Below are positions 2,931 through 15,511 of a DNA stretch of 32,000 bases, in pieces. The first letter of the stretch is position 1. The number at the start of each line of letters is the position of its first letter. The notes under the pieces are model-generated. The model saw nothing but the letters and a program-made list of their open reading frames with translations. It was not told where the DNA came from and did no database searches. A program made the translations under genes and the position numbers. The stretch is taken from contig NC_009925.1 in NCBI RefSeq assembly GCF_000018105.1, forward strand, positions 4,830,001-4,862,000, written 5' to 3'. The DNA comes from Acaryochloris marina MBIC11017 (GTDB lineage: Bacteria > Cyanobacteriota > Cyanobacteriia > Thermosynechococcales > Thermosynechococcaceae).

Positions 2931-4487
2931 CTAAGTCAGGGGGATAGACACGGTAAATTGGGTTTTCCCAGGTTCAGATACCACGGAAATATCGCCCTCA
3001 TGTTTCTTCACGATCTTATGGACAATATCGAGGCCCAAACCGCTGCCTTCTCCAGGGGGCTTGGTGGTGAAGAACGGTTGGAATATTTTGGGCATCACTT
3101 CTGCGGGGATTCCCTGACCGCTGTCGGCAATTTTGACCTGGACCTGATTCTCATGGTGCTGGACATCCAGGGTTAAGGTGCCTTGATAATCCATGGCCTG
3201 CAGGGCGTTATGAATCAGATTGGTCCAGACCTGGCTCAGCTCATCGTGGAAACAGGACACCGATGGAATGGGATCATAATTGCGAATGACCTCGACCCCA
3301 TTTTTAAGCTGACTCTGGTAAAGGGTTAAAACCGTTTCAATATCGTAGATAAGGTTGGTGGGGGACTTTTGGCCGGTATGGTCAAAGTGAGAATAGCTCT
3401 TCAGGGCAAAGACGACTTTGGCTGCTTTGTCCGTGGCAGTTTTGATGGTCTTAGTGCTGTTTAACAAGGTTGAAAACTGATAGGCCATATCCAAGGTCTG
3501 GCGTCCTTCTGCAGACTGCAGTCGGGGGACGATGGCCTCGATCTCTTCTAGATAATTCAGCTCCGCTAAGGTATCCGCCACGTCATCCGCCTGATCAATC
3601 CCTTCCGCTTCTAGCATGCGGATATTTCCCCGCTTCAGCTTGCGCTTTTCGCGACTGCTCAAGATCACCAGATCCTGGTTGGCGGAATCCAACAATTCTG
3701 AAAATAATTGTTGGCAATCTCCCGTTAGAGCCTGGAAAAAGGTGGGGAGTGCCCCTAAATTGCGTTCTAAAAAGTCAGAAATATTTTCTACTGAGGATCG
3801 GATTGCCCCCAGGGGAGTATTGATTTCATGGGCGATCCCGGCAATCAACTGACCTAAAGAGGCCATCTTCTCCGATTGAATCAGTTGCTCCTGGGTGGTC
3901 TCTAATTGCTTAAGAGTTGCCTGCAAATTGTGGTTCTTCTCCTGGACCATCTGCAAGGTTTGCTCTAATTCCACTTGCTTGGCTGCTAACTCTTCTGCCA
4001 TGTGGGTAGTGTCAGACAGGGCGGTGGACCGAGCCTGGAGCAGATAGAGAAAATCTGAAGTCGGTTCATGGGTAGCAAAATCCTTCAGTTTGACCCCATA
4101 GCCTTTGAGATCGGAGAGGTCTGTGACCCAGAGAGAGCCGATGAAAAATATCACATCTTCGGACTCAATGGGCATCAACTGGCCCTTCAACTGGAATCCC
4201 CGGTGAATCGATTCGATTAAAAACAGTTTTTTCGACTTTTTCAGCAGGGCATCAAACTCCAACGCTACTTTTGGACGCTGGATCTGAAAAAAATCATCTA
4301 CCTGTCCGCCCATCAGCCCCTCAGGAGCAATGCGTTGCAGCACCTTGCCCGCTTGCAAAATCTCTAAGTTGCGATTGAAGACAAAATGGAAGGGAAAAAC
4401 CTTGGCAAAACACTCGGGGGGTAAACTGCGCTCGATCCCATTAGTGGAAAGGACACTTGACTCTGTACTTAACTGAGAACTGATCAT
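2931..4487 (-). CDS. HNOBA-domain sensor histidine kinase (H-NOX-associated kinase)
   Basis: 518-aa ORF. The N-terminal ~190 aa contain FAKVFPFHFVFNRNLEILQAGKVLQRI, which resembles the HNOBA domain of soluble guanylate cyclases (PF07701). A coiled coil follows (ELEQTLQMVQEKNHNLQATLKQLETTQEQL). The H-box is SEKMASLGQLIAGIAHEINTPLGAI, and the ATPase boxes are LIHNALQAM, DSGQGIP and GEGSGLGL. The only in-frame ATG overlaps the H-NOX gene's 3' end by 47 nt. Confidence 0.88.
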   Translation of the reverse strand: MISSQLSTESSVLSTNGIERSLPPECFAKVFPFHFVFNRNLEILQAGKVLQRIAPEGLMGGQVDDFFQIQRPKVALEFDALLKKSKKLFLIESIHRGFQLKGQLMPIESEDVIFFIGSLWVTDLSDLKGYGVKLKDFATHEPTSDFLYLLQARSTALSDTTHMAEELAAKQVELEQTLQMVQEKNHNLQATLKQLETTQEQLIQSEKMASLGQLIAGIAHEINTPLGAIRSSVENISDFLERNLGALPTFFQALTGDCQQLFSELLDSANQDLVILSSREKRKLKRGNIRMLEAEGIDQADDVADTLAELNYLEEIEAIVPRLQSAEGRQTLDMAYQFSTLLNSTKTIKTATDKAAKVVFALKSYSHFDHTGQKSPTNLIYDIETVLTLYQSQLKNGVEVIRNYDPIPSVSCFHDELSQVWTNLIHNALQAMDYQGTLTLDVQHHENQVQVKIADSGQGIPAEVMPKIFQPFFTTKPPGEGSGLGLDIVHKIVKKHEGDISVVSEPGKTQFTVSIPLT

Positions 4488-5004
4488 GGTCGGCGCCCTC
4501 CTCGCGGCTGTGGGTCTGGTTGATATCTACCTCTGTTTCAAATCGTTCCCCCAGCCCTTCTACCAATCCCATGACCATGGGGGCTAGTCCATCTCGCTCC
4601 GAGTGATAATGCAGGGTTAATTCTTCCTCATCCGCTTCATCGCAGTCAAAGGATGGGGGCTTCAACTTGGGAAACATCACCCCGACTCGGGCATGAAGAT
4701 CATCCAGATTCTCCAGGAACTCAGGTAAATCTTCCCCATTCATTTCCATTAGCTCTCCATACCCTTCTTGGGCGGTGAACTGAACCCAATACTTACCGAA
4801 GGCATGCATAACGTCTGCAGGAGAGAGCTCCAATACTTCGCTAGCGGCTCCCACCAACCGGTAGGTCAACTCATCGGGGTAGCCTTCCATGCTGATAAAG
4901 GCTTCCGTTTTGATCTCAGCTTTTTGTTTGATCGCCTCCCAGGTTGCATCATTAAAATGGCTGCGCACCATCTTTTCGATGGCTTTATTGACTAGGCCAT
5001 ACAT
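4441..5004 (-). CDS. H-NOX (haem-nitric oxide/oxygen binding, HNOB) sensor protein
   Basis: 187-aa ORF starting MYGLVNKAIE. Candidate proximal haem ligand His104 in NLDDLHARV. Haem-propionate Y-x-S-x-R motif as YHSER (aa 133-137). Prolines in KLKPPSF. No Trp9 of the Trp9/Asn74/Tyr140 distal triad seen in O2-binding H-NOX. A GGGAGG Shine-Dalgarno-like sequence ends 4 nt upstream of the ATG on the minus strand. Confidence 0.92.
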   Translation of the reverse strand: MYGLVNKAIEKMVRSHFNDATWEAIKQKAEIKTEAFISMEGYPDELTYRLVGAASEVLELSPADVMHAFGKYWVQFTAQEGYGELMEMNGEDLPEFLENLDDLHARVGVMFPKLKPPSFDCDEADEEELTLHYHSERDGLAPMVMGLVEGLGERFETEVDINQTHSREEGADHDQFSVKYRVKCPFH

Positions 5005-5680
5005 GAGAGCCTCCCTAACGATCTAAATTTCAACAGTTCTAGGGTTCCCAATCCACAAAACATGTTCCACAGGGGGTTTGTTTTTGGATTTTTATCTTTG
5101 AAAGGACTAATAATGCCCTGATCCTGGCTAAAAAATAATCAAAAGTTGGGGTAATTTTTTAGGAATATTTGCTGAAGATAATAATTTCTAGGCCAGCAGA
5201 GCGCCTCTATCTCGAAAACTAGATTTATTTGAAGCAGAAAGAATATATGTCTAGGGCTATGAGTATTCAGAAATCAATAATTAGCCTTTCTTTATTTATT
5301 ATTAATAATGAATTAATGATAGAATTATAGTATTCATTTTTTAACAAAAACTAAATGATTTATTCTGAAAATAATCAAATTTAAGAACTTAAAGCATGCG
5401 TGTAATCACTCAAAAAAACCTTATCTATAGGTGTTTTCGTGCATTAAAGTTACGTGTTTACACTGATGCGACACCTAGATAGACCTAATATTCTCTGATT
5501 TATCGTTAAAGACTAATTCAGTTTTATCGATAAATTGACCCAGTCAAAATCACCTGAAAATTCTCCCAAAAAGATATTAATGAGTCGCTGATGATATTTT
5601 TTCGTCACAAGTAATTGGAGATAATTCCCCATATGCATTAATATCTATCTCTTTGGCGAAAGAGTATTTAAAAGTGATAT

Positions 5681-5707
5681 TTCTACATATAGTGTAACTA
5701 TGTAGAA
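5681..5707. promoter_or_regulatory. Perfect 9-bp inverted repeat within the long AT-rich spacer
   Basis: ttctacata (5681-5689) and tatgtagaa (5699-5707) are separated by 9 nt. It could be a protein-binding site or an RNA hairpin; the function is unknown. Confidence 0.3.
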
Positions 5708-5969
5708 AATATTTTCCATGTCAAAAATAGTGAAATATCTTTTTTTGAAATAATTCAGTCGAATAGTTAACAACGTCAGGCGGTTATTGGTTAATGGCTA
5801 ATGCTAAACAGGATCAAAAAAGTGGGGATAATTCCCTATTTACTCATGTCTTCTTATCTCTATCTGAAGTAAAAGCAGATTGCAGATTTATGCCAAATTT
5901 TCGCTAAAAAGAAGTGTTCTCTAACCTTTCGTTTATGTTGTTAATCCATTTAGAACCCAAGAGGAATTC

Positions 5970-6737
5970 ATGATTACGGCCAATAAACAAGTCACCCAAG
6001 CTCTGTACAACGATACAGCGGCTCGATGGGTTCGAGGTGGACCCAGCTCGCTGTCTGACTTCACAGCACGTCCCGCCATTTTGGAGATGTGTGCACCAGT
6101 TACAGAGCAAAAGATTCTGGATCTCGGATGTGGTGAAGGGTACTGTAGCCGTCAACTCCGACAGCTCGGTGCAGCATCCGTTTTAGGCGTCGACCTCTCC
6201 CAGAGGATGATTGAAGCCGCCCAGGCCCAAGAAGTACAAGAGTCTTTGGGGATTACCTATCAGGTGGGATGTGCCACGGACGTTCGGCATTACACCCAAG
6301 ACAAGTTTGATTTAGTGGTGGCTGTTTTCTTGTTTAACTACCTAACGGTTGCCCAAACTCAGGCTTGCATGGCAGAAATTTTTCAGGTGCTGGAACCTGG
6401 CGGGCGGTTTATCTTTAGCATCCCCCACCCTGCTTTTCCCTATATGCGCCAAGCTGAGTTTCCCTTTTATTTCGAAGTGGATGGCAATAACTACTTCAGT
6501 GGACGGGACCAACAATGTCCAGGGCGCATTTGGAAGCGCGATGGTTCCTGGTTAGACGTCCAGCTGATTCACAAAACGATTCAAGATTTCTTTGAAGCGC
6601 TGCAAATGGCTGGTTTTACAAGCATGCCGACTGTGCGTGAATTACGAGTCTTACCTGAACATGTCGAACTTGATCCAGATTTTTTCGGACCGTTAGTTGA
6701 TTACCCCTTACATATGGCGATTGAGGTGCACAAATGA
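5970..6737 (+). CDS. Class I SAM-dependent methyltransferase
   Basis: 255-aa ORF with glycine-rich SAM motif I (ILDLGCGEGYCS), acidic motif II (VLGVDLS), and DLVVAVFLFNYL with LEPGGRFIFS. AAGAGGA lies 7 nt upstream of the ATG. The stop overlaps the next gene's start (ATGA at 6734-6737). Confidence 0.88.
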   Translation: MITANKQVTQALYNDTAARWVRGGPSSLSDFTARPAILEMCAPVTEQKILDLGCGEGYCSRQLRQLGAASVLGVDLSQRMIEAAQAQEVQESLGITYQVGCATDVRHYTQDKFDLVVAVFLFNYLTVAQTQACMAEIFQVLEPGGRFIFSIPHPAFPYMRQAEFPFYFEVDGNNYFSGRDQQCPGRIWKRDGSWLDVQLIHKTIQDFFEALQMAGFTSMPTVRELRVLPEHVELDPDFFGPLVDYPLHMAIEVHK

Positions 6738-7444
6738 AAACGATTACTGCCTACTCTATGGATTCCTATCGCAGATTGACCATGCGGCACCCCTTGTGGA
6801 AGCACCCTTTCCTAGAGCAATGCCGGTCTGGAGAGCTGACTTTGGCCGAAGTGCGTGTTTTAGCGGTACAGATGTACAAGTTTTCCCAATCCTTTAATCG
6901 CATCCTGGCGGGCATTATGTCTTGTTGCCCCGATGAGAATGCCCAAATGGTGATTATGGAAAATCTCTTGGATGAAATGGGGCAGGGCGATTTGACTCAT
7001 GCTCATCCAGAATTATTTCGGCGGTTTACCCGGTCTTTAGGGATTGATGATGGGACATTACAAATGACTCCCCCGGAGCCGGAAACCCAGGCCATGATTG
7101 ATACGTACCTTGCTCTGCCCCATAAGTATGGTTATTTAGCAGCAGTGGGAGCCGTTTGCTTTGCATCAGAAGGAATTGTGAATTCCCTATATACCCAAAT
7201 TCGCCAAGGCATTGTCGGGGTATCTCCTTTCTCATCGGAAGCGTTGAGCTTTTTCGAAGTGCATATAGATCTCGATGATGACCATGCTGCTCATTTAGAA
7301 GCGCTGATCGAACCCCGATTAAAAACGGTGGAAGACTCCCTCTATTTGAATCGAGCGATCAAGAAAGCGATGGATTCGCGACTGAAATTCTTTAATGGTA
7401 TTCAGCGTGCTTCTGAAGCTGTGTCTTATGCTTGGGCGGCCTAA
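6734..7444 (+). CDS. Haem-oxygenase-like diiron enzyme (iron-containing redox enzyme family, CADD/PqqC-like fold)
   Basis: 236-aa ORF. Candidate carboxylate/His ligand pattern: NLLDEMGQGDLTHAHPELF (E81, H89/H91), CFASEGIV (E146) and FFEVHIDLDDDHAAH (H177-x3-D181-x2-H184). The spacing matches what I recall for CADD-type haem-oxygenase-like diiron oxidases. Translationally coupled to the methyltransferase. Confidence 0.8.
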   Translation: MKTITAYSMDSYRRLTMRHPLWKHPFLEQCRSGELTLAEVRVLAVQMYKFSQSFNRILAGIMSCCPDENAQMVIMENLLDEMGQGDLTHAHPELFRRFTRSLGIDDGTLQMTPPEPETQAMIDTYLALPHKYGYLAAVGAVCFASEGIVNSLYTQIRQGIVGVSPFSSEALSFFEVHIDLDDDHAAHLEALIEPRLKTVEDSLYLNRAIKKAMDSRLKFFNGIQRASEAVSYAWAA

Positions 7445-7481
7445 TGATGCTCTTGCCCTGAGCAAGGGTGTATGTTTTGCA

Positions 7482-7502
7482 GAGCCTCATCCCATGAGGC
7501 TC
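7482..7502 (+). other. Perfect 9-bp stem / 3-nt loop hairpin between the diiron-enzyme and TauD-like genes
   Basis: gagcctcat (7482-7490), loop ccc, atgaggctc (7494-7502). There is no U-tract after it, so it is not a classic terminator. It may be an RNA stability or processing element. Confidence 0.4.
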
Positions 7503-7541
7503 CAAATACCTAGCAAATGCTAGATACGACGAAGATAAGCG

Positions 7542-8660
7542 TTGCCATCGGCCTCAATTCTGTACCTGCCCCCTACGTTGCCTGTCGATTCGATCGTTAT
7601 TGTTATGTCACTCCTTACTCGTATGGGTCATATCGAAGACTTATCTTCGGTGATGATCAAGGCTAAGTCACAGCCAAGCTGGACTAGTGCAGGTTTAGAA
7701 ACCAATTCTCACTGGAGAATTACGCTCCCAGAGTCTATATTGTCCTCAACTTTAGTGTTGCATCACTGGTTGGAGGCGAGGGGATATACCTGGCAGTCGC
7801 CTGAAGCAAGGGGGATGAGAATTCAGAATCTTGATCTTCTGGCGAATGTGATGCGTTATCATCTCACCCAAACCACGGGCGTTGTCTTATTGTCTGGGTT
7901 TGATGTCGCTGAATACGGTGAGTCTGCAAGTCGACTGCTCCTGCTGCAGCTGGGCTATGTATTAGGGTCTGTGTTAGATAAACGTGGACTGTTGTATGAC
8001 GTCTGCGATCGCGGCCAGGATCACCGGCAAGCCAATGTTCTCTTTTCCAGTACCTGTACGTCGCCTGGGTACCACACAGACAGCACGGATGCAGACCTGA
8101 TGCCCGGTATTGTATCTTTGCTTTGTTTGCGAACGGCTCGCGAGGGAGGTGTCAACCGCCTAGCCAATACCCTGACTGCCTATCAGCGACTGCTTCGATC
8201 TCAACCCGAGGTGTTACGACGGCTTTGCGAGCCATTTATTCGCGACAAAATCATTGTCGGTGAGGTTGGCACCCGCTCCCACCTCGATCGATTACGAAAT
8301 GCGTTCCCAGTGTTTGAGTGGGGCCGCTGGTATCCAGGGCTGACCTGTCGGTATATGCGCTATTGGATAGAGGCGGGCCACGATAAGGCGGGATTACCTC
8401 TATCGGAGGAGGATCTATTTGTATTGGATCAATTTGAGGCGACCCTCAATCAAGAGGACATTACCTATCAACTTCAGCTCCAACCGGGTGACATGATTTT
8501 TCTGAATAATCACCTGATTGCTCACGACCGCACGGAGTATCTAGATTGGGAAGAGCCAGAAAAGAAGCGACATCTAGTTCGCATGTGGGTTGGGAATGAT
8601 GCGCTTCAGCGTCATGCTTCCAAACCAGATGATATGAAGCTGAACCATCTCTACGGCTAA
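7542..8660 (+). CDS. TauD/TfdA-family Fe(II)/2-oxoglutarate-dependent dioxygenase
   Basis: Facial-triad H-x-D in SPGYHTDSTD, distal His in NNHLIAHDRTEY, and a conserved Arg context in KRHLVRMWV. Overall layout fits PF02668. The track start at 7542 is TTG; the ATG at 7605 (MSLLTRMGH...) or 7623 is more plausible, so the 5' end is uncertain. Confidence 0.82.
   Translation: MPSASILYLPPTLPVDSIVIVMSLLTRMGHIEDLSSVMIKAKSQPSWTSAGLETNSHWRITLPESILSSTLVLHHWLEARGYTWQSPEARGMRIQNLDLLANVMRYHLTQTTGVVLLSGFDVAEYGESASRLLLLQLGYVLGSVLDKRGLLYDVCDRGQDHRQANVLFSSTCTSPGYHTDSTDADLMPGIVSLLCLRTAREGGVNRLANTLTAYQRLLRSQPEVLRRLCEPFIRDKIIVGEVGTRSHLDRLRNAFPVFEWGRWYPGLTCRYMRYWIEAGHDKAGLPLSEEDLFVLDQFEATLNQEDITYQLQLQPGDMIFLNNHLIAHDRTEYLDWEEPEKKRHLVRMWVGNDALQRHASKPDDMKLNHLYG
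8005..8012. repeat. HIP1 octamer GCGATCGC
   Basis: Exact match read in sequence. Confidence 0.95.
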
Positions 8661-8710
8661 ATATTGGGTGTAAGTTAAGTGGGGTTGAGAAGATTTTTAC
8701 AGCCCTACTG

Positions 8711-10402
8711 TTAATCATTCCATTGGGCAATCAACGTGTAAGCTTTTCGCAATTCCTCGGCGAGTGGCTCGGCAAAATCGCTAATCTTCTTATCGTTAGA
8801 CCAGGAGGATGTGATTCGCTGGGCGCGCGGCTTCTTGCGTAAGGATGATGGTGCAGCAGATAGACTCTCTGCATCGAGGTAGTTTTCGATAGTACTTATC
8901 TGTTCATCCTTCTCTGGATACCACAAACCAATGTTCTGTCCCTTTGCCTCCGCCTTCTCGAACTCTGTCTTGATAAAGGTCTTTGCAGCCTGAAACTTCG
9001 ATTTATCCTTCAATTTTCCGTCTGACCCGCGAACTGCATCACTGTCAATCACTACTAGAGCATTTCTAGAGAAGCGGAACATCGCGACAAGTTTCTCCAA
9101 CGCTGCTGTATCTGAAAGGCTGTCTTCTGAAAGAGAAATGCTATCTAGTAGGGAACCCCCATACATTTGAAAATCAAAGTGAATGCCAGGCACGAGCAGT
9201 GGGAGGTTCTTTTCAATTGCATACATCTTGAGCCATTTGCGGATGTAGATGCAATCAGAAGGTCCTTCTACCCAAATGACCCCATTAGTTTGAAGGAGAT
9301 CCGAGCCTTTAGCTCCTAATCCATCGAGGAGAGAACTGGGCATCCCAGTAGCTTCCCGAACTGTAGTGAAACAGGCAATGTACTGTTCAAGAGGCTTAAC
9401 AGGTCCATTTTCTGAAAATCGGTAACGAGTCACCTCTGTCTCATTAGATGAGAACTCAAAAATAGCAGCCGTTTCTTCAAGCTCAATCGCTAAATTAATT
9501 AGTACTGGTGAGTGAGACGCTACAAATATTTGGCTGAGCCAAGAAATGTGCTGCTGCGTAGGAGGGACTATCCTGAATTTGTCACCTTCACTGGGCCATT
9601 TGGTATCCAAGATTGACTGGACTTGGCAAAATGCTTCTTCTTCTTTTGTTGTCCTGTCTTGCTTTCCTCTGACCATAAGCCAAAATATAAAAGTAAAAAG
9701 GCGTCTTATCACACGAGGTTCAAGGTGAAGCTCTGGCTCATCGAATAAAAGGACTGGCTTTCCATTCCTACGAAGAATAGAGGTTATTAGCTTCGCGCAC
9801 TCGCGGACACCCGATGGCAGAGCTGATGGCTCGATCTCGTCAGGACCACTAGGATGCATCCGTCCTTGGGTAAATCGGCCGTTCTTATAGAAGGTGAAGT
9901 GTGCCCCGAAAATAAAAAAGAGCCCAAAATTTAAGAGTGGTAAAGCCGATTCAGCGCGATGAGTAATATCCGTGAGATCCTTCATAAATTGAAGGTCGTT
10001 TGGGATGTTAACAAGATGGGTTTTTAACGAAAACCCCTGCACATCTCCGTGGATGTAGCGCCACACTGGATTTTTCACGTCATACTCAAACAAGATCTCT
10101 TTGTCTAAGGTAGGACCGTCCAGTTCATCTACTTGGGAATACCCGATTCTGAGTATGCCAGAGATATTGGTATCTTGGGACCCAAGGTTATCTGCCAAAT
10201 TGAAGGGAATCTCTGGTTGGTATAGATCTATACTTTTAGCAATTTTACGATAGTTGAACTGCAGTCCGTCGATGATACGAAGCAGATTCGTCTTGCCAGT
10301 CCCATTTGGGCCGATGAGAATATTGAACTGCTTAAGTGGGCCGACTACCTGCCTGGGACCGAACGTAAACAGTCTTCCCAACTCGATTTGCTTGATTTTC
10401 AT
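8711..10402 (-). CDS. ABC/SMC-like ATPase fused to a Toprim-type nuclease domain (OLD-family or fused AriA-AriB/PARIS-like); candidate defence protein
   Basis: 563-aa ORF. N-terminus MKIKQIELGRLFTF plus Walker A GPNGTGKT (aa 31-38). About 180 aa are inserted before a signature-like LPSGVRE (aa 195-201). Walker B VLLFDEPELHLEP (D221/E222). H-loop VASHSP (H297). The C-terminal half has VIWVEGPSD (E379, D383), VVIDSD (D453/D455) and STIENYL (E506), consistent with a Toprim/DUF4435 metal site. Confidence 0.8.
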   Translation of the reverse strand: MKIKQIELGRLFTFGPRQVVGPLKQFNILIGPNGTGKTNLLRIIDGLQFNYRKIAKSIDLYQPEIPFNLADNLGSQDTNISGILRIGYSQVDELDGPTLDKEILFEYDVKNPVWRYIHGDVQGFSLKTHLVNIPNDLQFMKDLTDITHRAESALPLLNFGLFFIFGAHFTFYKNGRFTQGRMHPSGPDEIEPSALPSGVRECAKLITSILRRNGKPVLLFDEPELHLEPRVIRRLFTFIFWLMVRGKQDRTTKEEEAFCQVQSILDTKWPSEGDKFRIVPPTQQHISWLSQIFVASHSPVLINLAIELEETAAIFEFSSNETEVTRYRFSENGPVKPLEQYIACFTTVREATGMPSSLLDGLGAKGSDLLQTNGVIWVEGPSDCIYIRKWLKMYAIEKNLPLLVPGIHFDFQMYGGSLLDSISLSEDSLSDTAALEKLVAMFRFSRNALVVIDSDAVRGSDGKLKDKSKFQAAKTFIKTEFEKAEAKGQNIGLWYPEKDEQISTIENYLDAESLSAAPSSLRKKPRAQRITSSWSNDKKISDFAEPLAEELRKAYTLIAQWND

Positions 10403-10619
10403 GGAACACCTTTTGACGAGTAAGGCCCCGTTCTAGTGCTGCTTGGGTTTTAAAGTAGTGTGGTCGAACATTAGCACTCTCAAAGAATAAAACATCAAGC
10501 TTGGTTGAAGACCGTGAAGATAATGAACATCTCTTCATTGGGCGTTAGGAACTGTAATAAGATTTGGATTAAGGCGTCACAAGTCCCCGCCTATCGTTCA
10601 TTGCAGAGTCTTACTGGTT

Positions 10620-14094: not shown

Positions 14095-14649
14095 ATGCCC
14101 ATTGTTAATAAAGCAGCTCCATTAATTATTGAGATTCCCAATATTTTGACATTCAAAGAATGTGATGAATTAATGGGGAAGATCAATCAGCTTAACCCTA
14201 GTCTGGCAACGGTTCGTAATGATGGAGAGGCCGAGATTAATACCAATGTACGCAATAATGAGCGAGTTGTTTTCAGCGATTTCTCCCTTGCAGAGAAATT
14301 ATTTTTAAAGGCACAAGAGTACGTCCCGCCAACAATGCAGGGAAGAATCTTGTTGAGCGCTAATGAACGCTTTAGATGCTATCGATATAAAGTTGGCATG
14401 AAATTTAGCCCTCATTATGATGGCTCACTTGAACGGAATGGAAATGAAAAGAGTTATTACTCATTTCTGGTCTACTTAAACGATGATTTTGAAGGTGGAC
14501 AAACAAATTTCCTAACCGAGTCAATATGCTCAATTACGCCTCGAAAGGGTTTTGGTCTTTTGTTTCAGCATCTCATCCTTCATGAGGGGGTTGAGGTATC
14601 TAGAGGTGTGAAATATGTAGCAAGAACAGACTTAATGTATCAGAGGTAA
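14095..14649 (+). CDS. Small 2OG-Fe(II) oxygenase, prolyl 4-hydroxylase-like
   Basis: 184-aa ORF. H-x-D in FSPHYDGS, distal His in FQHLILHEG, basic 2OG-binding residue context in RGVKYVARTDL, and YLNDDFEGGQTNF typical of P4Hc-type enzymes. The gene looks clearly more AT-rich than the neighbouring trpB. Confidence 0.8.
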   Translation: MPIVNKAAPLIIEIPNILTFKECDELMGKINQLNPSLATVRNDGEAEINTNVRNNERVVFSDFSLAEKLFLKAQEYVPPTMQGRILLSANERFRCYRYKVGMKFSPHYDGSLERNGNEKSYYSFLVYLNDDFEGGQTNFLTESICSITPRKGFGLLFQHLILHEGVEVSRGVKYVARTDLMYQR

Positions 14650-14834: not shown

Positions 14835-15092
14835 ATGCGTATTAACGCCCGACTTGATGACGAATATGCCTTCAAACTGAATTACCTTCAGCGGCAGACC
14901 GAAAAAAGTGTCACAGAAATTATCAAATTGGCGCTAGATGCTTATTACCAAGAATATGCCCAGCAGCATCCTATCGATCTCCTAACTGAAAGTGGATTTA
15001 TTGGGTGTGGAGAGGCCGAAAGTAATCTATCGACCCATTACAAATTGGACTACGCCGATAGCCTAGAAGAGAAATATGGCCTAACTCAGTGA
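14835..15092 (+). CDS. Type II antitoxin, ribbon-helix-helix (VapB/CopG-like)
   Basis: 85-aa ORF. The N-terminus MRINARLDDEYAFKLNYLQRQTEKSVTEIIKLALDAYY fits a beta-strand plus two-helix RHH fold. The stop overlaps the PIN gene's start (GTGA at 15089-15092). Confidence 0.8.
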   Translation: MRINARLDDEYAFKLNYLQRQTEKSVTEIIKLALDAYYQEYAQQHPIDLLTESGFIGCGEAESNLSTHYKLDYADSLEEKYGLTQ

Positions 15093-15511
15093 TTATCGTC
15101 GATACAGGATTTTGGCTAGCTTTAGCCAACCGTCAGGATAGCTACCACTCCCAAGCCATTCAAGCGTTAACCCCAATTCAAGAACCCCTGATTACGACTT
15201 GGCCTGTCGTCACAGAAACTTGCCATTTTCTGCTGAAGCGTTTGGGGACCTCTGCTCAAGAACAGTTTATTCTCAACCTATCCCAAGAAGCATTTATCAT
15301 CTTTGAGCTGACCCTTGCTCATAGCGCCCGAATACACGAACTTACTAGTCAATATCGAGATCTACCCATGGACCTGGCTGATGCCTCTCTCGTGATTCTT
15401 GCAGAGCATCTTGGACATGGCCGAATTTTGTCCGTTGATGAGCGTGACTTCAACACCTATCGCTGGAAAAACACACATCCTTTTGAGAATCTAATGTTCA
15501 GGACGATCTGA
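15089..15511 (+). CDS. vapC: Type II toxin, PIN-domain ribonuclease (VapC family)
   Basis: 140-aa ORF. N-terminus IIVDTGFWLAL (first acidic residue D5), mid-protein VVTETCHFL (E) and MDLADASLV (D). Size and the 4-nt overlap with an RHH gene are typical of vapBC. The start is GTG. Confidence 0.82.
   Translation: MIIVDTGFWLALANRQDSYHSQAIQALTPIQEPLITTWPVVTETCHFLLKRLGTSAQEQFILNLSQEAFIIFELTLAHSARIHELTSQYRDLPMDLADASLVILAEHLGHGRILSVDERDFNTYRWKNTHPFENLMFRTI

Follow-up and report, generated by a model that had tools for sequence, protein, structure and literature searches.

Class 1 OLD proteins are encoded by single genes that do not lie near other candidate defence genes (PMC10568477). In the literature consulted, anti-phage defence has been shown for only two of them, P2 Old and Vc OLD (PMC10568477), and class 1 is the least understood OLD class. 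A two-metal site has been validated by mutation in TsOLD, where E377, D431 and D433 belong to metal A and D381, S478 and E480 to metal B, with R487 in addition (PMC7049728). The corresponding site of BpOLD consists of E400/D455/D457 and E404/T506/E508, plus K562 (PMC7049728). Here, we investigated a gene within a 32,000-nucleotide stretch of Acaryochloris marina MBIC11017 (contig NC_009925.1, positions 4,830,001 to 4,862,000; hereafter the window, in whose coordinates all positions are given). The gene encodes a protein of 563 amino acids (aa) with an ABC ATPase in its N-terminal half and a Toprim-like domain in its C-terminal half. We consider it probable that this is an enzyme of the OLD family type that stands alone, in the class 1 layout, and is built from an ABC ATPase, a β-hairpin linker, a strongly diverged Toprim nuclease domain and a helical tail. 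The gene is an acquired accessory gene and probably acts against phages. The gene is:

8711..10402, minus strand: coding sequence of the 563-aa stand-alone ABC ATPase and Toprim-like protein (ATG start, stop codon at 8711-8713, from the open reading frame list).

An initial annotation, made earlier from the letters of this stretch, had described the open reading frame (ORF) as a fusion of an ATPase and a Toprim domain and had listed its motifs. We re-derived seven motifs by translating the DNA, and all were present with residue positions in agreement. The exact 563-aa protein is called on 13 public contigs, with identical context in each, and has about 90 full-length homologues of 540-610 aa. 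Our narrow-family alignment consists of 82 full-length homologues whose identity to the Acaryochloris protein (hereafter the query) is 28-42%. In 82 of 82, residues G31, N33, G36, K37, E222, H297, E379, G380, S382, D383, D453, D455 and E506 are invariant. Because these key residues do not change across homologues at that level of identity, the motifs are not chance strings.

The C-terminal half is the best-conserved part of the protein. We searched for this domain exhaustively among 1.84 billion cluster representatives (clusters at 50% identity) and found it in 3,280 clusters at E ≤ 1e-3 and in 2,166 at E ≤ 1e-10, nearly always at the C-terminus of proteins of 500-650 aa. To represent the wider family we used a sample of 72 diverse members whose identity to the first sequence is 22-31%. 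This sample has invariant residues in exactly six columns, which by motif correspond to query residues E379, G380, D383, D453, D455 and E506. The acidic residues on which the Toprim assignment of the initial annotation depended therefore survive alignment as invariant columns. The features of the C-terminal half, all on the minus strand, are:

8873..9340, minus strand: Toprim-like α/β core (aa 355-510), a putative two-metal nuclease (secondary structure, fold search and the relatives' PF20469 matches).
9254..9280, minus strand: Toprim motif 1, VIWVEGPSD (aa 375-383), with E379 as a putative metal-A ligand and D383 as a putative metal-B ligand (invariant in the narrow and the wider family).
9038..9055, minus strand: Toprim motif 2, VVIDSD (aa 450-455), with D453 and D455 as putative metal-A ligands (DxD invariant in all three alignments).
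8876..8896, minus strand: motif 3, STIENYL (aa 503-509), with T504-x-E506 as putative metal-B ligands (E506 invariant, T504 at least 90% conserved in the narrow family).
8714..8872, minus strand: C-terminal helical tail (aa 511-563), with helices at 523-532 and 546-562 and a predicted local distance difference test score (pLDDT) of about 95.

At the sequence level, E379-x3-D383, D453-x-D455 and T504-x-E506 of the query reproduce the metal-site pattern of TsOLD and BpOLD, in the same order. The DxD of the query (D453/D455) corresponds to D431/D433 in TsOLD, D455/D457 in BpOLD and D453/D455 in P2 Old, and the last Glu lies at +51 from the second Asp in both the query and BpOLD. In an alignment of 32 P2 Old relatives, the invariant residues follow in the order E398/E402, D453/D455, W537/G540/E543 and K550. 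An AlphaFold 2 (AF2) model of the whole protein has a pLDDT of 87 and a predicted template modelling score (pTM) of 0.78. Its secondary-structure order is β1 (375-378) followed by E379, then D383 with α1, β2 (409-413), β3 (447-451) followed by D453xD455, an α-helix, β4 (490-494) and T504xE506. Both E379 and D453xD455 directly follow a strand, which is the Toprim arrangement; the domain definition used for this placement of strands and acidic residues reportedly stems from Aravind et al. 1998. In the tail, K523 and W561 never vary among the narrow-family members. By comparison with K562 of BpOLD and R487 of TsOLD, K523 could be the catalytic basic residue, with K474 as the alternative. Judging from these features and the searches below, we take the C-terminal half for a strongly diverged Toprim of the OLD type, and it is very probably a Toprim-like two-metal nuclease domain.

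Searches with the relatives and with the whole chain point the same way. PF20469 (OLD-like_TOPRIM) was touched by 46 of the 72 wider relatives at a whole-protein E ≤ 0.1 (best 6.8e-5), and DUF4435 by one (E 1e-3). Those PF20469 matches that were listed individually start within the first three profile positions (1-3), the expected place of the VEG strand. A full-length profile of the wider family, searched against a set of 177,635 distinct PDB sequences that includes OLD, GajA and AriA chains, matched the retron Eco8 OLD nuclease (4.8e-27), TsOLD 6P74 (1.5e-22) and GajA (~1e-15). These alignments reach the first Toprim motif and place IIWVEGP on IVFVEGA of Eco8, whereas those to AriA and PtuA end where the ATPase ends. 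A whole-chain Foldseek search put the Eco8 OLD protein (E 4.9e-12) and GajA (~1e-9) first, above Rad50/SMC heads. Its top matches span about 600-700 alignment columns, and those of GajA 650-700. We also modelled the C-terminal domain in isolation (pLDDT 84). In the domain-only Foldseek search, rank 1 was retron Eco2 chain 9lm3_E (prob 0.94, E 0.02, TMq 0.43) and rank 3 was the Xanthomonas OLD C-terminal region 6njv, both at E 0.02-0.04. Other matches were generic α/β folds. A low-stringency, non-significant comparison with the P2 Old family in hhalign placed W494...E506 of the query on W537...E543 of P2 Old.

The ATPase half was identified directly by profile. Pfam PF13304 (AAA_21) covers aa 26-303 (E 2.9e-28, 100 bits), and AAA_15 and SMC_N match more weakly at the P-loop; AAA_21 and AAA_15 are among the profiles that the initial annotation had proposed for checking. 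The best PADLOC match is the "AriA" model PDLC02980 (E 1.4e-78, 263 bits) over the same span as AAA_21. Both models have 304 positions and align the same residues, yet score 263 and 100 bits. The PADLOC models ATPase-Toprim_I-B, AriAB, Old and GajA gave partial matches to the ATPase only, and the PHROGs and NCBIfam matches fall mainly in the P-loop region. A phmmer search of the whole protein against PDB sequences returned only SMC/ABC P-loop matches. The modelled ATPase domain, mostly above pLDDT 90, has a fold that resembles Rad50/SMC heads, PtuA, GajA and the Eco8 OLD protein. The features of this half and of the linker are:

9470..10402, minus strand: ABC/SMC-type ATPase domain of the AAA_21 type (aa 1-311; Pfam, PADLOC, AF2 model and fold match).
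10289..10312, minus strand: Walker A / P-loop GPNGTGKT (aa 31-38, with K37; G31, N33, G36 and K37 invariant in the 82 homologues).
9833..10255, minus strand: variable β-rich and helical insertion between Walker A and the signature motif (aa 50-190; the most gap-rich and most variable part of the alignment).
9800..9820, minus strand: signature-like motif LPSGVRE (aa 195-201; G198 at least 90% conserved, family consensus LPSGVL).
9713..9751, minus strand: Walker B and D-loop LLFDEPELHLEPR (aa 218-230; putative catalytic E222, invariant).
9539..9670, minus strand: helical insertion (aa 245-288) that adds ~40 aa to the spacer from Walker B to the H-loop (spacer lengths and AF2 model).
9506..9523, minus strand: H-loop VASHSP (aa 294-299; H297 invariant, S298 at least 90% conserved).
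9353..9469, minus strand: long β-hairpin linker from the ATPase to the C-terminal domain (aa 312-350; AF2 strands 312-330 and 333-350).

Around Walker B and the D-loop, conservation in the narrow family is 90% or higher at P223, E224, E228, P229 and R230, and the wider-family consensus reads IEEPExxLHP. The linker is poorly conserved in sequence. The insertion at aa 50-190 contains strands at 50-131 and helices at 136-165 in the AF2 model; it would be the positional counterpart of the OLD dimerisation insert, with a role proposed by analogy with TsOLD (PMC10568477). The unusually long spacer between Walker B and the H-loop, suspected from the outset to be lineage-specific, is real. The distance is 76 residues in the query, with an immediate-family median of 76 (range 57-94), versus a median of 34 in the wider superfamily. 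The ~40-aa insertion is therefore specific to the subfamily and not an anomaly of one gene. In the AF2 model it forms helices at 252-268 and 270-277 with a low-confidence stretch at 280-286.

The gene stands by itself: it converges on a TauD-family gene and is divergent from hemB (ALAD), just as the initial annotation had placed it between a convergent biosynthetic-type gene and hemB. Within 10 kb, a methyltransferase, a TENA/haem-oxygenase-like gene and the TauD-family gene lie on one side and hemB, TauE and trpB on the other. We found no helicase, reverse transcriptase (RT) or small, separate Toprim gene within 10 kb of the window copy; retron non-coding RNA (ncRNA) was not searched for. Furthermore, no ORF family within ±4 kb was common to more than two of 15 full-length-family loci. 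The earlier statement that neither a UvrD-like GajB nor a separate AriB accompanies the gene thus extends to the family: no partner gene is conserved across the 15 loci, and the layout is therefore that of class 1 OLD.

We then compared the locus with that of an Acaryochloris-type sister strain, represented by a public contig (L088); NCBI assigns orthologues of the flanking TauD-like gene to Acaryochloris sp. At ~90% nucleotide identity, the two loci agree as far as the TauD stop (8660) and once more from 10511 onward, which is ~110 bp upstream of hemB; the DNA between is unalignable. The H-NOX/kinase-to-TauD block and the hemB-TauE-trpB block are syntenic, and the TauD-like protein is 90% identical. 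The TauD/hemB slot of L088 (7527-9468, minus strand) instead encodes an unknown protein of 277 aa that neither Pfam nor PADLOC matches, together with a DUF6745 protein of 339 aa. The extent of the cassette in the window is:

8661..10510, no strand assigned: strain-specific cassette made up of the gene and ~107 bp of its own upstream DNA (from the TauD-like stop codon to the conserved hemB promoter region).

Because the sister strain carries different cargo at the same junction, the gene is accessory and acquired, and it is not a syntenic core gene. This comparison, which the initial annotation had suggested making, upholds its view of the gene as acquired DNA, though not the compositional grounds on which it had relied. 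HIP1 (GCGATCGC) occurs 11 times in the window versus 0.38 expected, a mark of a cyanobacterial genome, and its absence from the gene (0 observed, 0.58 predicted) has P(0) = 0.56. The gene has 45.2% G+C (GC) versus 51.4% for hemB. Relative to the 21 further window ORFs that are 150 aa or longer (48.9 ± 3.0%), however, its GC content is at z = -1.26, and GC at third codon positions (GC3) is at z = -0.66. We therefore rejected HIP1 absence and low GC as arguments for foreign origin. A search for direct or inverted repeats flanking the cassette gave only short chance matches, no mobility genes mark it, and promoter and terminator scans were not above shuffled expectation.

The distribution of the family is sparse. 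A relative is encoded by 296 of ~185,000 species-representative genomes. The best full-length match in this set, from a Maribacter metagenome-assembled genome (MAG), has 39% identity, and no close cyanobacterial orthologue was found. In three cyanobacterial MAGs, the C-terminal part alone was matched at 43-47% identity, from residues ~292-357 onward. These C-terminal-only matches (loci L023-L025; proteins P0086-P0090) come from two Cyanobacteria MAGs and a Nodosilinea MAG. Proteins P0086-P0090, up to 669 aa long, score higher with AAA_15 than with AAA_21. Their C-terminal-only similarity together with this AAA_15 preference suggests an exchange of ATPase and nuclease modules between superfamily members. 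We considered whether short C-terminal-only proteins represent split, PARIS-like forms and rejected this for most of them, which are truncated gene calls that still contain parts of the H-loop or Walker B. Three others (P0206, P0201 and P0158; 210-288 aa) have the C-terminal domain without an ATPase remnant and could be genuine stand-alone versions.

By analogy with OLD nucleases, we infer how such an enzyme might work. The ATPase head, with K37, E222, the D-loop, H297 and the variable inserted domain, would dimerise or oligomerise and act as sensor and switch for an infection cue, and ATP binding or hydrolysis (K37, E222, H297) would likely be needed in vivo. Metal A would be held by E379, D453 and D455 and metal B by D383, T504 and E506, with K523 or K474 as the basic catalytic residue, so that the Toprim site would cut nucleic acid by two-metal catalysis. 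The substrate would most likely be DNA, nicked or degraded as by P2 Old, TsOLD and VcOLD; an RNA or tRNA substrate, as for AriB, is possible. The biological role is most likely anti-phage, through blocked phage replication or abortive infection.

Several results weigh against this interpretation. Searched alone, aa 316-563 had no match in Pfam or PADLOC even at E ≤ 10; the DUF4435 and OLD-like Toprim profiles that had been put forward for this half failed in these searches. Profiles built from the narrow family (A3, 30 C-termini) and from diverse members (A5, 29 sequences) found no real match among the PDB sequences. The PF20469 matches of the relatives are scored as whole-protein E-values, and those listed individually fall below the Pfam gathering score. 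Domain-only Foldseek against the PDB gave nothing at E ≤ 1e-3 and a best TM-score of 0.43. In hhalign, the comparison with the 32-sequence P2 Old family profile was not significant (E 0.02-0.06) and left the DxD motifs unaligned, although its best local alignment set VEGPSD on VEGKTE, with E379 on E398 and D383 on E402; a comparison with the single P2 Old sequence was uninformative. Because the direct profile tests fail, the Toprim call rests on transitive profile matches, fold search, motif pattern and spacing. Of the fusion described in the initial annotation, the AAA_21 ATPase and the conserved acidic site are upheld, while a direct profile match for the Toprim half is lacking. On the side of biology, tblastn against 50,697 phage records gave no match to the 563-aa protein, and the alternative cargo of L088 (the 277-aa protein and DUF6745) has no PADLOC match and is not a known defence gene. 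The genomic association with defence is weak, because four of seven annotated neighbourhoods, the window included, are plain housekeeping contexts. The other three are mobile or toxin-antitoxin-rich islands: a Tritonibacter locus with a PIN_12 protein and a transposase, a Photobacterium locus with an integrase, transposases and VspR, and a metagenomic contig with a group II intron RT, HigB, RelE, PIN and IS3 elements. Finally, a non-defence role has been reported for the archaeal OLD-family ATPase Cran1 (PMC12796447).

Two further outcomes stand apart from this weighing. In a viral fold library (BFVD), the isolated domain matched only uncharacterised giant-virus proteins, the best being A0A6N1NTR1 (Tupanvirus, 662 aa) and H2EBR9 (Megavirus, 372 aa) at prob 0.90 and E ~3e-3; the Tupanvirus protein has the size of an ATPase-Toprim fusion. 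We also considered whether the TauD/hemB slot is a defence hotspot, and this is not supported, the alternative cargo having no PADLOC match.

Among the alternatives, the one that survives best stays close to our own interpretation, and we hold it to be unlikely. The superfamily of ~3,300 clusters might be a distinct, unnamed OLD class, marked by NG-x-IWVEGPSD, YGG, DSD, TIENY, the invariant K and W and the helical tail, possibly with another substrate or trigger. Its Toprim would then have diverged past the reach of current profiles, and an RNA or tRNA substrate, or a trigger other than those of P2 Old, TsOLD and VcOLD, might apply. If this were true, defence-annotation tools would miss the superfamily or mislabel it as merged PARIS.

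Alternatively, the protein could be a housekeeping or repair factor, an OLD/RecF-like ATPase-nuclease that works on host DNA in repair, chromosome maintenance or the cell cycle. The housekeeping setting of four of the seven sampled loci, one of which adjoins a UvrA-like gene, would fit, as would an ATPase like the heads of SMC, Rad50 and RecF, the lack of a known defence gene adjacent in the window, and Cran1 as a reported precedent for a non-defence OLD-family ATPase. However, a sister strain with ~90% identical flanks lacks the gene at this junction, none of the ~185,000 species representatives has a close orthologue, and the three remaining loci lie in mobile or toxin-antitoxin islands. Such a very patchy pattern across phyla is unlike that of core repair factors, and class 1 OLD genes are themselves described as single genes away from defence genes (PMC10568477). 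We judge this alternative to be distinctly improbable.

A fused PARIS protein, with AriA and AriB in one chain, is more doubtful still. Here the ATPase would sense a phage anti-restriction protein and then release or activate a DUF4435-type Toprim, which would cleave host tRNA and arrest translation. The substrate cannot be read from sequence, and the ATPase is of the AAA_21 type with 263 bits to the PADLOC "AriA" model. The original PARIS detection rules ask for a DUF4435 (PF14491) effector of at least 27 bits, separate or fused, and an AAA_15 or AAA_21 ATPase (PMC9122126). Fused PARIS genes exist, and the threshold of the AAA_21+DUF4435 fusion profile is only 20 bits (PMC9122126). The query reaches 42 bits with the fused "AriAB" model of PADLOC, but this match is confined to aa 217-311, which belong to the ATPase part. 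Since the ATPase alone exceeds the published threshold, tools may mislabel the gene as "merged PARIS," and ATPase-driven over-calling of this kind is likely. The C-terminal half has no DUF4435 or AriB match at E ≤ 10, the C-terminal profiles match no PDB chain, no PARIS entry is among the top 50 fold matches, and the wider-family profile aligns to AriA only through the ATPase end. The initial annotation had leaned toward the DUF4435/AriB type because of the VEGxxD form and the IENY motif, and this leaning does not hold. The active site of AriB consists of E26, D30, D88-x-E90 and E122 (PMC11464382). Its first motif, E26/D30, shares E-x3-D with the query, but this is not discriminating, because TsOLD also has E377-x3-D381. 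AriB has a DxE middle motif and its last Glu at +32, whereas the query shows the OLD pattern of DxD and TxE, its last Glu lying at +51, and its relatives match OLD-like_TOPRIM in 46 of 72 cases versus one for DUF4435. From the motif pattern, these profile counts and the fold ranking, the gene is therefore OLD-type and not AriB/PARIS-type.

Least likely of all, a non-nuclease C-terminal domain (a Rossmann-like α/β fold with an acidic pocket for a regulatory ligand or metal, or another hydrolase or transferase, with convergent likeness to Toprim) would accord with the lack of a significant direct sequence or fold match to any Toprim, with the mostly unrelated top 50 fold matches (ThsB, GH3 glucosidases, lumazine synthase) and with nucleoside deoxyribosyltransferase-like folds in the viral match list, but it leaves unexplained that six positions, the sole invariant columns in a diverse superfamily sample, agree with the two-metal site of OLD proteins in residue identity, order and spacing, that the domain is almost always joined to an OLD/AAA_21-type ATPase, that 46 of 72 relatives give the transitive PF20469 signal, and that Toprim-bearing nucleases take ranks 1 and 3 in the domain-only search while OLD proteins top the whole-chain search.

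A stand-alone, class 1-type OLD enzyme thus remains our preferred explanation, and its main value is practical, in that it exposes a gap in profile libraries that a profile from the present alignments would close. Genome surveys probably under-count or mis-assign the clade, because the Pfam, PADLOC and NCBIfam releases searched do not detect its nuclease half. The clade is also a compact single-gene candidate for ABC ATPase control of a Toprim nuclease, from a cyanobacterial host in which few defence systems have been tested.

Other parts of the window also drew our attention. The methyltransferase, the TENA/haem-oxygenase-like gene and the TauD-family dioxygenase form a tight three-gene unit (5970-8660, plus strand) in which the first two genes overlap by 4 bp. 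The unit is kept in those relatives whose contigs were examined, and its TauD-like member has only 14 homologues at E ≤ 1e-30 in 5.8 billion proteins. The three genes may make up a small biosynthetic operon specific to the lineage. At 2931-5004 (minus strand), a gene for an H-NOX (HNOB) sensor and one for an HNOBA histidine kinase overlap. Beyond the kinase, the public contig has a response regulator and a hybrid GAF kinase, and the whole, which is kept in sister strains, resembles a two-component module for NO/O2 sensing. About 1 kb of AT-rich intergenic DNA (5005-5969; 31.5% GC in 5001-6000) with only a 41-aa gene call separates the H-NOX gene from the methyltransferase gene. About 4.5 kb from our gene there is a ribbon-helix-helix (RHH) antitoxin (85 aa) and PIN toxin (140 aa) pair (14835-15511, plus strand). 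This pair adjoins a 2OG-Fe(II) oxygenase gene (14095-14649), the lowest-GC gene of the window (38.9% GC). In L088, a 163-aa unknown ORF follows the oxygenase, and this may be a second variable spot.

We also compared the query with known systems. The best fold match to the isolated domain is retron Eco2 (PDB 9lm3), at E = 0.02; Eco2 is an RT-Toprim fusion, its Toprim being joined to an RT and not to an ATPase (PMC12405507). PARIS (AriA and AriB, class 4 OLD), its fused AriAB form included, has an AAA_21-type ATPase and a Toprim-family effector as the query does. However, the query's C-terminal domain is not DUF4435 by Pfam, PADLOC or its relatives, it has DxD/TxE rather than DxE/E, and there is no separate AriB gene. 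Gabija GajA (class 2 OLD) has the same architecture of ABC ATPase and Toprim and is among the top whole-chain fold matches. Yet Gabija has an adjacent UvrD/PcrA-like GajB, and the 20-kb neighbourhood of the query has no helicase gene. The PADLOC GajA models match the query mainly over its N-terminal ~50 residues (E ~1e-5). Class 2 OLD proteins also have an extra helical insert in the Toprim domain (PMC10568477). The retron Eco8 effector (class 3 OLD; PDB 9lpa, 9lp9, 23or) is the best PDB match both by wider-family profile and by whole-chain fold, and retron_eff_Eco8 is the top NCBIfam match, at 40 bits versus a 250-bit cut-off and over aa 1-56 only. The Eco8 OLD protein is ~750 aa long and has an adjacent RT and msr/msd ncRNA, whereas the query has 563 aa and no RVT-domain gene within 10 kb.

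Class 1 OLD (P2 Old, TsOLD PDB 6P74, Vc OLD) is the closest in layout. Like the query, these are single genes without a conserved partner, often alone among unrelated genes, rare and taxonomically scattered. Both have the same acidic constellation of E-x3-[D/E], DxD, [S/T/A]xE and a downstream basic residue. The query differs in that its Toprim half is missed by PF20469 and by the PADLOC Old models, while the full-length P2 Old relatives listed all carry PF20469. It also has ~20 extra residues between motif 1 and the DxD, a helical tail of 50 aa, the ~40-aa Walker B/H-loop insertion of its immediate subfamily, and invariant residues of its own (NG before β1, W377, P381/S382, YGG at 414-416, K474, W494 and W561). 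The gene leaves the known kinds of system unchanged and is a strongly diverged addition to the class 1-type OLD nucleases.

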